Shown: positions 57,870 to 62,639 of the stretch, in pieces | Position numbering within the stretch: position 1 is the first letter of the stretch | Layout: every line of letters begins with the position of its first letter | NCBI GenBank assembly: GCA_964016885.1 | Contig: OZ024742.1 | Span: 17,794,001-17,858,000 of the forward strand | Direction: 5' to 3' | Source of the DNA: Eledone cirrhosa | Taxonomy: Eukaryota | Length of the DNA: 64,000 nt | Program-made: the position numbers and the translations under genes | The notes under the pieces: model-generated | Database searches by the model: none | What the model was told of the DNA's origin: nothing | The model's input: only the letters and a program-made list of their open reading frames with translations

Positions 57870-60302
57870 GACTATGAATAAACGTAAATAATGTTAACCT
57901 GTTCACTTACACTTCTTATATATAAATATTCTCCGTAGTAAACAGACCCACATGCGATATGTCGATACTGATGTGTCGGTAATTAACCAACACTTACATG
58001 AATTAATTATATATATATATATAATTAATTCGAGTATGTATTGGTTAATAATATATATATATATATATATGTATATATATATATCAGAATGAAGGGGGTA
58101 AAAGCCAGTTAGACAATTAACCACCAGAGTACTCGATACTTGGGGTAATAGAGTGGGTAATATGAATTTTTCATATAGATGTAAATATATATATATATAT
58201 ATATATATATATATATATATATTTCGTTTCTGAATTTGTTTAGCAAGATTCTTTATCTGAAATCGTGTGTTGAGACCGATATTGTTATACTTTGGGAGGG
58301 TCATGTTGCCAATAAGAAACACACGCACCAGTTGCTTTCACTTCAATTTATTATAATAAATTTATAATAAGTTTATAAATTTATAAATTTCTGGTTGGTT
58401 GGTTGGTTCCACAACCAGATAGTTGTTTATATATTGTCAAAGTTCCTTCGTCACACATTCTGTGACCTCCTCAGTGACTGGGGATTCTTTTCTTTGTTTT
58501 TTGTGCCTCTCCTTTGTTCTGTCCTATGCCATCTTGTTTTTATGTGTGTCAAAACAAAGAAAAGAATCCCCAGTCACTAAAGAGGTCACAGAATGTGTGA
58601 CGAAAGAACCCCGAGAATATATAAACAACCATCTGGTTGTGGAACCAACCAACCAACCGCAAATTTATAAATTCCTAAATTTATAAATTTATTATAATAA
58701 ATTGAAGTGAAAGCAACTGGTGCGTGTGCTTCCTATTGGCAACATGACCCTCCCAAGCATAACAATATCGGCTTCAACACACGCCCTCAGACAAAGAATC
58801 CTGCCAAACAAATTCAGAAACGAGATATATATATATATGTATATATATATATCATCATTGTCGTTTAATGTCTACTTTCCACCCTAGCGTGGGTTAGAAG
58901 GGTTTGTCCCATATGAGGCAAATTGGGTTGGGTGACCATGTCTTGGTTCATATAGGACTGTTTCTGGCTGGTTTTCTACGGCTGGATGCCCTTCCTAACA
59001 CCAACCACATTTACTGTGTGTGCTGGGGGCTTTCTGCTGTGTCTCCTACACAACCACTTTACAGTGTGGGCTGGATAAAAATGTATGATGCATGTATATG
59101 TGTATAAACTGTTGAGTTACCACAAGGCCTCTTCCCCATCTTGAAGATTCTATGCACAATCTTCAATATATGACTACCTATATTAGTAACATATCTTTGT
59201 CTTCTCTCTCTCTTTATCAGTTACAGGTTTCTCCCTCTGGTACTCAATCCTCAGTGTTGGTCTCGTCTGTACATTTTACACATCACTGGTAAGGCACCTC
59301 TTTTCTTTCTTTCTCCTCCCCCCCTCTATATGGATGCTGTGTGTGTGTATATATATATATATGTATATATATACACACATATATATATATATATATATAT
59401 ATATATATACACACACATATATATAACGAAGGAAATGTGGTAAGGAACCAGATGGACCATAACGCACCAAAGTACTCAATACTTAAGGTAGTAGAGTGGG
59501 TAATAGGAACGAGTAGGACCCCGACGGCTGAGCTCAAGCCGTTTCGACGGCTAATTCTGGACTAATATATATACATATGTGTGTGTGTGTGTGTGTGTGT
59601 GTGTGTGTGTGTGTGTGTGTGTGTGTGTGTGTGTGTGTGTGTGTGTGTGTGTGTGTGTGTGTGTGTGTGTGTGTGTGTGTGTGTGTATATATATATATGT
59701 GTGTGTGTGTGTGTAGTGTAGATCTATAGCGAAGGTAGGTCCATAACTCCTATGTGTGACCTTGAGCCAATCCGCTATGAAACGTGCAATCACAATAAAT
59801 ATCTTATACATGTAAACGAAACTTCCACGTTTTTTCTAATATATATATATATATATATATTTCGCCCCTGAATATGCCTAGCAAGATTCTTCATCTGAAA
59901 TCGTGTGTTGAAACCGATATTGTTATACTTTGGGAGGGTCATGTTGCCTATAAGAAACACACGCACCAGATGAAGAATCTTGCTAGGCAGATTCAGGGTC
60001 GAAATATATATATATATATATATATTAGAAAAAACGTGGAAGTTTCGTTTACATGTATAAGATATTTATTGTGATTGCACGTTTCATAGCGGATTGGCTC
60101 AAGCTCACACATAGGAGTTATGGACCTACCTTCGCTATCGATCTACACTACACACACACACACATATATATATACATATACACACACACACACACACACA
60201 CACACACACACACACACACACACACACACACACACACACACACACACACACACACACACACACACATATATATATATATATATATATATATATATATATA
60301 TA

Positions 60303-60956
60303 GCAAGCAGCAAACAGCCACAGGAAACAAGTACAACCAATCTCTGGGAGGGCCCTGTAGAAACAGTAGACAGCTTCTGCTACCTAGGAGACCGAATTAG
60401 CAACGGAGGTGGGTGTTCAGAAAGTACAATAACTAGGGTAAGAACGGGATGGAAGAAGTTTAGGGAACTACTACCACTGCTAGCTGCAAAAGGCTTCTCC
60501 CTCAGAATGAAAGGCAGACTGTATGATGCGTGTATCCGAACAGCGATGTTGCATGGTAGTGAGACCTGGGCGCTGAAGGTGGAAGACTTACGTAGATTAG
60601 AGAGAAACGAAGCCTGCATGCTCCGATGGATGTGTAACAGTAATATACGTGAACGACAAAGCATAAATGAATTGAGAGAAAGACTGAGCATAAGAGGAAT
60701 CAAATGCTGTGTGCAGGAGAGGCGGTTGCGCTGGTATGGACATGTGATGCGTATGAAGGATGACAGCTGCATAAAAAGGTGCAGAGCACTAGAAGTTGAT
60801 GGAAACCGCGGAATGGGGAGACCCAAGATGACCTGGGATGAGGTGATAAAAGCCGACCTTACCCAATTACACCTCTCAAAGACAATGACACACGACCGTG
60901 ACTTCTGGCGTCACGCAGTAATACAGAGTACCCGACCTCCCATGGGTACATGCTGA
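60303..60956 (+). pseudogene. 5'-truncated RTE-clade LINE ORF2 C-terminus
   Basis: ETVDSFCYLGD...RVRTGWKKFRELLPLL...KGRLYDACIRTAMLHGSETW...EACMLRWMC...RRLRWYGHVMR...RGMGRPKMTW is a typical RTE RT-thumb and C-terminal motif series. Confidence 0.9.
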
Positions 60957-61263
60957 AGCATATAAACAATATGCCCCCACACCCCCAACCGCAAGGTGGT
61001 CGTGGAGGTGCCACAGCAAAAAAGCACCCAGCCCACACTGTAAAGTGGACGTGTAGGCGCCACGAAAAAGCACCCAGCACTCACTGTAAATGGGGTTGGT
61101 GTTAGGAAGGGCATCCAGCTGTGGAAATCAAGCCAGATCAGTTCCTGTATGAGCAAGGCATGGTCAGCCGACCAGACACTGCACACAACAGGACAACCCG
61201 TCTAACCCATGCTAGCGTGGAAGAACGGACGTAAAACGGTGATGATGATGATGATGATGATGA
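60303..61263 (+). mobile_element. RTE-clade LINE 3' fragment with (GAT)n tail
   Basis: ORF end, 3' UTR and GATGATGAT tail at about 61240-61263; inserted in (TA)n. Confidence 0.88.
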
Positions 61264-62639
61264 TATATATATATATATATATATTAGTCCAGAATTAGCC
61301 GTCGAAACGGCTTGAGCTCAGCCGTCGGGGTCCTACTCGTTCCTATTACCCACTCTACTACCCTAAGTATTGAGTACTTTGGTGCGTTATGGTCCACTTG
61401 GTGCCTTACCACATTTCCTTCGTTATATATATGTGTGTATATATATATATATATACATATATATATATATATATATATATATATATATATATATGTATGT
61501 ATATATATACATATATATATACACACACACACACAGCATGCATATAGAGGGGGGGAGGAGAAAGAAAGAAAAGAGGTGCCTTACCAGTGATGTGTAAAAT
61601 GTACAGACGAGACCAACACTGAGGATTGAGTACCAGAAGGAGAAACCTGTAACTGATAAAGAGAGAGAGAAGACAAAGATATGTTACTAATATAGGTAGT
61701 CATATATTGAAGATTGTGCATAGAATCTTCAAGATGGGGAAGAGGCCTTGTGGTAACTCAACAGTTTATACACATATACATGCATCATACATTTTTATCC
61801 AGCCCACACTGTAAAGTGGTTGTGTAGGAGACACAGCAGAAAGCCCCCAGCACACACAGTAAATGTGGTTGGTGTTAGGAAGGGCATCCAGCCGTAGAAA
61901 ACCAGCCAGAAACAGTCCTATATGAACCAAGACATGGTCACCCAACCCAATTTGCCTCAAATGGGACAAACCCTTCTAACCCACGCTAGGGTGGAAAGTA
62001 GACATTAAACGACAATGATGATATATATATATATATATATATATACATATATATATATATCTCGTTTCTGAATTTGTTTGGCAGGATTCTTTGTCTGAGG
62101 GCGCGTGTTGAAGCCGATATTGTTATGCTTGGGAGGGTCATGTTGCCAATAGGAAGCACACGCACCAGTTGCTTTCACTTCAATTTATTATAATAAATTT
62201 ATAAATTTAGGAATTTATAAATTTGCGGTTGGTTGGTTGGTTCCACAACCAGATGGTTGTTTATATATTCTCGGGGTTCTTTCGTCACACATTCTGTGAC
62301 CTCTTCAGTGACTGGGGATTCTTTTCTTTGTTTTGACACACACAAAAACAAGATGGCATAGGACAGAACAAAGGAGATGCACAAAAAACAAAGAAAAGAA
62401 TCCCCAGTCACTGAGGAGGTCACAGAATGTGTGACGAAGGAACTTTGACAATATATAAACAACTATCTGGTTGTGGAACCAACCAACCAACCAGAAATAT
62501 ATAAATTTATAAATTTATTATAAATTTATTATAATAAATTGAAGTGAAAGCAACTGGTGCGTGTGTTTCTTATTGGCAAAATGACCCTCCCAAAGTATAA
62601 CAATATATATATATATATATATATATATATATATATATA

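Follow-up and report, generated by a model that had tools for sequence, protein, structure and literature searches.

The genome of Eledone cirrhosa holds a hypermutated copy of a Penelope-like element (PLE), in which A>G changes are clustered on one strand of inverted pseudo-long terminal repeats (pLTRs). It lies between 58222 and 62606 of the window analysed here, a stretch of 64,000 nucleotides from assembly GCA_964016885.1 (contig OZ024742.1, positions 17,794,001 to 17,858,000 of the forward strand), and forms a 4.4-kb fold-back insertion with the same changes in both mirror arms. Judged from the genome sequence, double-stranded pLTR RNA was very probably hyper-edited by the adenosine deaminase ADAR and then reverse transcribed into the genome by the Penelope machinery. 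An initial annotation of the window had proposed that edited PLE RNA was written back in this way, and the proposal has gained support on two counts: A is the family state at the changed sites, and an unedited source locus has been found on the contig referred to here as C17.

The cluster lies in arm B2 (62060-62335, plus strand) and its mirror, arm B (58551-58826, minus strand). Compared with the majority state of 85 other arms of the family, which were the top similarity matches and are thus biased to similar copies, segment 62060-62335 has 13 A>G changes, three other substitutions and a gap of 1 nt, all of them repeated in its mirror 58826-58551. The A>G sites are 62080, 62084, 62093, 62099, 62100, 62101, 62113, 62127, 62152, 62156, 62273, 62274 and 62275. 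No arm among the 85 has more than three A>G or four T>C changes, and at the background of 0.0066 changes per A the expectation for the 70 A of this arm is 0.46 (probability of 13 or more, 4e-15). The cluster is real and far beyond chance. The closest other copy of the changed arm has 94% identity, while the sister arm has copies at 97-98%. None of the 13 edited A follows a 5' G, compared with 13 of the 57 unedited A; the earlier statement to this effect is confirmed, with p 0.11 for this arm alone.

Twelve of the 13 sites listed in the initial annotation hold against the family majority. The remaining one, 62255, is a subfamily state (G in 42 arms, A in 39, and G in the donor as well), and 62101 had been overlooked, so that the first run reads AAA>GGG and not AA>GG. 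Site 62127, formerly ambiguous, is settled as A>G by the A of the donor. That A is ancestral agrees with its being the family majority, and the donor has A at all 13 sites. The T>C changes reported for the partner arm at 58446 and 58470 (62439 and 62415 in the mirror) are real when compared with the donor. The sister arm at 58222-58500, formerly used as the ancestral reference, belongs in its distal part to a different subfamily, and arm A was rejected as an ancestral sister of B on the same ground.

The source was found through the DNA which accompanies the arms. A 251-nt piece of the flank gave three matches from three candidates, namely the two mirrors and C17:26558394, and the apex of the hairpin matched the same three places; a sibling or intermediate copy elsewhere in the assembly was rejected on these results. 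At C17 the hairpin, the flank and the distal segment all recur within host DNA that continues beyond them, and the arms there have the states of the family majority; for these reasons we regard this locus as the source and the window as the copy. Changes common to both mirrors were scored against C17 with the microsatellites masked. Arm B then has 13 A>G of 70 A and no T>C of 107 T (p 3e-6). Its tail, the last 57 nt, accounts for seven of these (of 14 A) with no other change; outside the tail there are six A>G of 56 A and six other differences, three of which are the donor's own by family state, two new in the window lineage (transversions at 62225 and 62270) and one ambiguous. Arm A differs from the donor by two A>G changes (58446, 58470) plus subfamily differences. 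The co-copied flank has a single A>G of 234 A among six substitutions in 722 non-microsatellite bases. The contrast between arm B (13/70) and flank (1/234) has a p of 2e-8, and both arms together have 15 changes in 171 A. Editing of the paired arms next to an unedited flank is a built-in control, one that ties the cluster to double-stranded RNA on sequence evidence and needs no RNA data. About 2.4 kb separate the donor from an internal exon of a sodium:solute symporter gene that is encoded on the opposite strand (Pfam match to PF00474; 2812-2964 of locus L119 on G000:C17, minus strand), and the donor is probably inside an intron of that gene. The edited strand is antisense to the gene.

On the minus strand, the left arm of the insertion comprises piece D (a sense pLTR end), a (TA)n tract, captured C17 DNA, B (antisense), A (sense, with tail) and a second (TA)n tract. 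Arm A (58222-58549, minus strand), defined by alignment and fold, is a pLTR with its 57-nt tail, sense on the minus strand, and forms the left insertion end. Distally (58222 to about 58421) it is of subfamily 1 and free of minus-strand A>G; nearer the apex it resembles the C17 donor and contains the two minus-strand A>G changes. The adjoining arm B was placed by alignment as an inverted subfamily-2 pLTR, antisense on the minus strand, with the 13 A>G at 58610-58612, 58729, 58733, 58758, 58772, 58784-58786, 58792, 58801 and 58805. Next come the captured C17 host DNA (58827-59859, minus strand), a mixture of repeats, microsatellites and unique sequence with its single A>G, and piece D (59860-59968, minus strand), the 3' end of a sense pLTR which is subfamily-1 at one diagnostic site and has no C17 counterpart.

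The remainder of the insertion, on the plus strand, mirrors the left arm. It begins with the mirror of D's initial 38 nt (59967-60005), where the changes of D recur; this stretch forms the fold-back apex of the insertion and has a short CAG microhomology read by eye. It is followed by the mirror of the distal captured DNA (60004-60299), a fragment of long interspersed nuclear element (LINE) type, the mirror of the captured C17 flank (61263-62059), arm B2 with the 13 A>G, and arm A2 (62336-62606), the mirror of A without tail, with A>G at 62415 and 62439. The right insertion end is the tail boundary at 62606, followed by (TA)n. Since both ends of the insertion lie in (TA)n, any target-site duplication is unreadable. 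Segment 58279-59578 mirrors 62606-61271, and the two mirror arms are one event within a single fold-back insertion, not two. While all 15 changes are common to them, the mirrors differ at 13 other sites (five left-only, eight right-only) and by the LINE insert; the G alleles in common therefore predate their divergence. The LINE-type 3' fragment (60303-61255), which we take to be RTE-like, is present in the right arm only and has no Pfam match. Its 3' half is 97% like other copies and 94.7% like the copy beside the donor; derivation from the donor's neighbour was accordingly rejected, the other copies being closer, and by sequence the fragment is likely to be a later, independent insertion.

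The repeat itself occurs as six pieces in the 58222-64000 region, and its identity comes from the outermost of these. Copy C (62637-64000, minus strand) is a separate, unedited, 5'-truncated and broken PLE which leads into a GIY-YIG endonuclease frame (63041-63445, minus strand; PF01541 above cut-off, 24 bits, E 4.7e-5). Because copy C runs into this frame, the repeat can be assigned as a Penelope-like pLTR and its sense strand fixed. The fragment upstream of the frame has no Pfam match. The tail of A and copy C were considered as one element split by the insertion, which was rejected since their subfamily states differ. A 17-mer of the pLTR recurs without mismatch at 31,188 places in the genome, from which we put the family at about 31,000 arms. 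A full arm (from reference position 1) is paired at many loci with an inverted arm that starts at position 58 and thus lacks the last 57 nt. The family therefore has pLTRs in inverted pairs, of which one arm may carry a 3' tail, as expected of endonuclease-positive PLEs.

A hammerhead-like CUGANGA...GAAA motif with flanking stems, without Rfam support, is found in 56 of 104 sampled arms and intact in both donor arms; the edits have broken it in the window. An Rfam scan of the window, where all copies are mutated, returned no hammerhead and only microRNA-like chance matches below gathering scores. The PLEs described in PMC3846280 and PMC11167929 have an inverted pLTR, an optional tail on one arm, a GIY-YIG endonuclease and host DNA captured between pLTRs in trans, and the Eledone cirrhosa family resembles them in the inverted pLTR, the tail on one arm only, the host-DNA capture and the endonuclease. 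It differs in its tail of 57 nt, compared with 30-40 nt, and in the edits fixed in the window copies, none being reported in the accessible parts of PMC3846280, PMC11167929 and PMC5625713.

Predicted folds connect the edits with pairing. In the fold of the donor RNA the eight edits outside the tail (six in B, two in A) are all paired across the hairpin, and the arm-B tail pairs only locally. Piece D has six minus-strand A>G changes, all in its tail (6/24 compared with 0/16 outside, p 0.06, which is suggestive only). When the minus strand of the window is folded, all six D changes and six of the seven in the B tail are predicted to pair in a D:B stem, 12 of 13 changed positions being G-U pairs. 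The B tail was thus likely, on this prediction, to have been paired with piece D, and editing appears to be confined to double-stranded RNA, the part concerning the tail depending on D or on a partner in trans. The donor is subfamily 2 and distal arm A subfamily 1, with no edits in its 79 A. We first considered the unedited distal A as proof of a template switch after editing. Arm B also has no edits at reference positions 99-214, and because of this gap the observation does not separate pairing in cis from pairing in trans.

When copies are pooled, the 5' context of the changes leans the way known for ADAR. The pool comprises 12 segments from nine loci, chosen by count and sharing reference sites; it omits, D apart, all segments with under 10 changes (L092, L100, L102, L103, L127, L181 and weak partner arms), and likewise the sites that a search motif had required and those beside gaps. 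It contains 266 one-type changes and 32 others. Sorted by 5' neighbour, the 231 edited and 298 unedited A give edited shares of 0.54 for A, 0.48 for U, 0.38 for C and 0.28 for G, a depletion of 5' G with p 1.6e-4. ADAR hyper-editing depletes 5' G across animals, with a weak 3' G preference in invertebrates; it is very high in octopus, and in a lizard it affects Penelope RNA (PMC5625713). In squid, repeats are edited in all sampled tissues (PMC9068888, the accessible parts of which mention neither germline nor gonad). Adenosine-deaminase domains (PF02137) are matched at four places in the Eledone cirrhosa genome.

A screen of the family reveals the same signature at further loci, both in a sample and in motif searches. 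The sample was the first 100 listed 17-mer matches, all in the first 19 Mb of contig C1; it is non-random and requires an intact 17-mer. Among its 104 arms at 70 loci, four arms at two loci have 27-37 T>C changes and the other 100 at most four; maxima for the remaining types are four (A>G), seven (C>T) and three (G>A). Hypermutated loci are thus 2/70, with a 95% interval of 0.3-9.9%. The motif screens yielded further copies with 10-47 one-strand changes in the pLTR. An AAA>GGG motif typical of arm B had only six matches among about 31,000 arms, two of them in the window, three at loci with 27, 21 and 10 A>G, and one unclustered. TTT>CCC had eight matches at five loci (37, 21, 7, 5 and 5 T>C) and TT>CC nine matches at seven loci (47 down to two changes), L126 being one of these loci. 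The control motifs GGG>AAA and CC>TT had one match each, neither of them clustered, and no APOBEC-type G>A or C>T clusters were present in the 104 arms or in these two control screens.

Several of these copies have structures of their own. L126 (3628-5371, G000:C1 near 42.797 Mb) is a Penelope copy folded back on itself: scored by a profile of the 3' part of the element, one arm has 135 T>C within about 860 nt and its mirror 99, and the cluster extends into the coding part. Of the three pLTR arms at L120 (3377-6180, G000:C4 near 162.097 Mb), two form a hairpin in which one strand is changed in both arms (27 A>G and 10-20 T>C), and the other has 47 T>C that start directly after the tail. Mirror arms with nearly identical edit sets occur at L121, L122 and L126. 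In L123 (3944-4195, G000:C6 near 5.100 Mb) one arm has three T>C in the tail and 21 A>G beyond it, from which tail and body seem to derive from opposite RNA strands; this may be of relevance to the two sites at which reverse transcription starts. The sense-strand clusters of L121, L122, L125, L126 and L180 start abruptly 130-220 nt from the 3' end and leave the end unedited, which could mean that copying repeatedly switched away from an unedited template or that the end was unpaired.

In the mechanism that we favour, RNA would have been transcribed through the Penelope hairpin and flank on C17, its double-stranded pLTR arms would have been hyper-edited (A to I) by ADAR, and Penelope reverse transcriptase would have copied the edited RNA, the inosines becoming G in DNA. 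The cDNA would have folded back at 59968-60005 and been copied into the right arm, so that both arms carry the same edits, and the LINE fragment would have entered the right arm later. All 13 plus two changes, as well as the six in D, are A>G on the minus strand. Reverse transcription of a lizard PLE starts at the two tail boundaries (PMC11167929), and since both insertion ends are sense pLTR 3' ends at such boundaries, the window minus strand (C17 plus) is the likely RNA template. The tail may have been paired in cis, in one transcript of an intermediate absent from the assembly in which the C17 segment was captured between two subfamily-1 pLTRs, or in trans, through template switches joining D, C17 RNA and a subfamily-1 pLTR. 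Both options fit the tail edits, and we are less sure of them than of the other steps.

Several observations weigh against ADAR editing followed by reverse transcription. Seven of the 13 arm-B edits lie in the 57-nt tail, which has no partner in the donor hairpin, so that the single hairpin edited on both arms, as the initial annotation had it, accounts only for the other six and for the two of the partner arm. A cis partner near the donor was rejected, none of the four other pLTR pieces in the surrounding 50 kb having an opposite-strand tail; D is missing from the donor locus, and no intermediate copy exists in the assembly. One AA>GG screen, demanding GG at one AAA site, had no match, and other screen matches are weak or unclustered (L092, L181) or have five to seven changes (L100, L102, L103, L127). 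The avoidance of 5' G, at p 0.11 in arm B, is moderate in the pool, where reference sites are reused, and scattered background changes are likewise rarest after G (4.1 per 1000 compared with 5.9-10). The edited share by 3' neighbour (G 0.52, C 0.47, A 0.42, U 0.36) has a p of 0.08. PF02137 also spans ADAT1 and ADAD proteins. The G alleles were read from the assembly alone; in a word search of sequencing runs, which listed no RNA run, the best runs contained 0.41 of 27 words, about what unedited family-shared stretches would give, and this result counts neither for nor against the G alleles. Lastly, an antisense template has been proposed for PLEs (PMC3846280).

This last proposal leads to the first of the other explanations, deamination of DNA. 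Adenines in the first-strand cDNA, within an RNA:DNA hybrid or a cDNA hairpin, would have been the substrate, with the host pre-mRNA strand (C17 minus) as template. ADAR can act on the DNA strand of RNA:DNA hybrids, and the donor lies near a symporter exon transcribed opposite to the edited strand, which would make that strand the cDNA if pre-mRNA was the template, in keeping with the antisense templates hypothesised in PMC3846280. A hybrid would span the 1-kb flank too, yet the flank has one change in 234 A. Moreover, on the edited strand the insertion terminates on either side in the 3' end of a sense pLTR, at a tail boundary, in agreement with the start sites of PMC11167929, and hairpins here and at L120 are changed on both arms of one strand. 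We consider DNA deamination unlikely. A burst of errors by the reverse transcriptase, for instance from an imbalance of the nucleotide pool, would need no editing enzyme and would likewise give one-strand, one-type changes common to both mirrors; the two arm-B transversions, too, arose in the window lineage. Such a burst would hardly end at the edge of a pLTR arm, skip about 1 kb of co-copied flank and restart in D, nor are changes reaching about half of all A in other copies and avoiding 5' G to be expected of it, and we hold it to be very improbable.

The same low standing is given to an artefact of assembly or polishing, as could come from polishing with edited RNA reads or from a read that folded back. 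Besides the calls coming from the assembly, the window has other near-perfect inverted repeats (51001-51606 and 51649-52254, 100%). The mirrors, on opposite strands, differ at 13 sites and by an insert of 950 bp and nevertheless share all 15 changes, none of which is in the donor, and similar clusters occur on at least six contigs. That G is the ancestral or a subfamily state from which other copies decayed by G>A, which the initial annotation had named as fatal to its own reading, was checked and has almost nothing left to recommend it. Some sites do have infrequent single G alleles (at 62080, in 8 of 63 arms), and copy C has G at the 62127 site. A, the family state, is what the donor shows at all 13 sites, and this donor shares apex and flank with the window copy; there is no G-subfamily; the nearest other copy is 94% identical; and other hypermutated copies have different sets of sites.

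Changes of this kind have been described in other retroelements. In a preprint on cultured human cells, three of 235 processed-pseudogene insertions made by L1 had T>C changes limited to inverted Alu sequences, read as ADAR editing before reverse transcription (PMC11702581). They share with the window copy the clustered one-strand changes restricted to the inverted-repeat part, the template switches and the fold-backs; they were induced, somatic and concerned L1 and Alu, whereas the window copy is from a natural assembly and concerns a PLE with its own pLTRs. A review (PMC12925331) covers A-to-G hypermutation in U3 of Rous-associated virus and in an inverted repeat of avian leukosis virus, where, as here, up to about half of the A in inverted repeats become G and are fixed in DNA by reverse transcription. 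Those are single cases of exogenous viruses in infected cells, in contrast to many independent genomic cases in a non-viral retroelement family. APOBEC-edited LTR retrotransposons of vertebrate genomes (PMC4866542) likewise preserve clustered, strand-biased hypermutation relative to a source copy; there G>A results from C-to-U changes on cDNA of LTR elements, and here A>G is found on the RNA strand in paired regions. The accessible parts of PMC4866542 and of a retrozyme preprint (10.64898/2026.07.22.740005) do not mention ADAR, and our literature search, which covered few subscription papers, turned up no account of ADAR-type clusters that had become fixed in Penelope copies of a genome. New in comparison with the retroviral and L1 cases is a natural, likely inherited and recurrent occurrence, with an unedited donor and an unedited co-copied flank. 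Inheritance is indicated by the mirror arms of the window, which have since diverged and taken up a later insertion.

Other repeats were noticed in the window. A satellite of 22.8 kb (25953-48735) has a 31-nt unit in about 715 copies with 84% matches and a GC skew of about 0.82. The inverted repeat at 51001-52254 has a 606-nt unit with 100% complementarity and a 42-nt spacer, and 52286-55088 has a 311-nt unit in 7.8 near-identical tandem copies, the first inverted head to head; both are very young fold-back or tandem structures, or assembly effects. Just past the window, a 758-amino-acid stop-free frame (L061 7402-9678, minus strand) resembles a LINE reverse transcriptase by eye.

If the proposed origin is true, ADAR would act on the RNA of retroelements in cells that contribute to the germ line, and mutations would be inherited by way of editing in an invertebrate. 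The invertebrate setting is of note, as the accessible parts of the published screen for edited retroelements, for G-to-A only, report none in 19 invertebrates (PMC4866542). The shared edits can serve to test how Penelope replicates, with regard to the template strand, the origin of the inverted arm from the same molecule and the points of template switching. As the edits hit the hammerhead-like motif, editing could disable new copies. For the family as a whole we think it probable that ADAR edits are made heritable routinely by Penelope reverse transcriptase. On the order of 1-4% of the approximately 31,000 arms would then be fossils of hyper-edited RNAs, their edit sets being barcodes of single molecules that tell both arms to be from one RNA and which strands were paired. 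Captured host sequence would follow the same route, and RNA editing would be a direct source of germline mutation.

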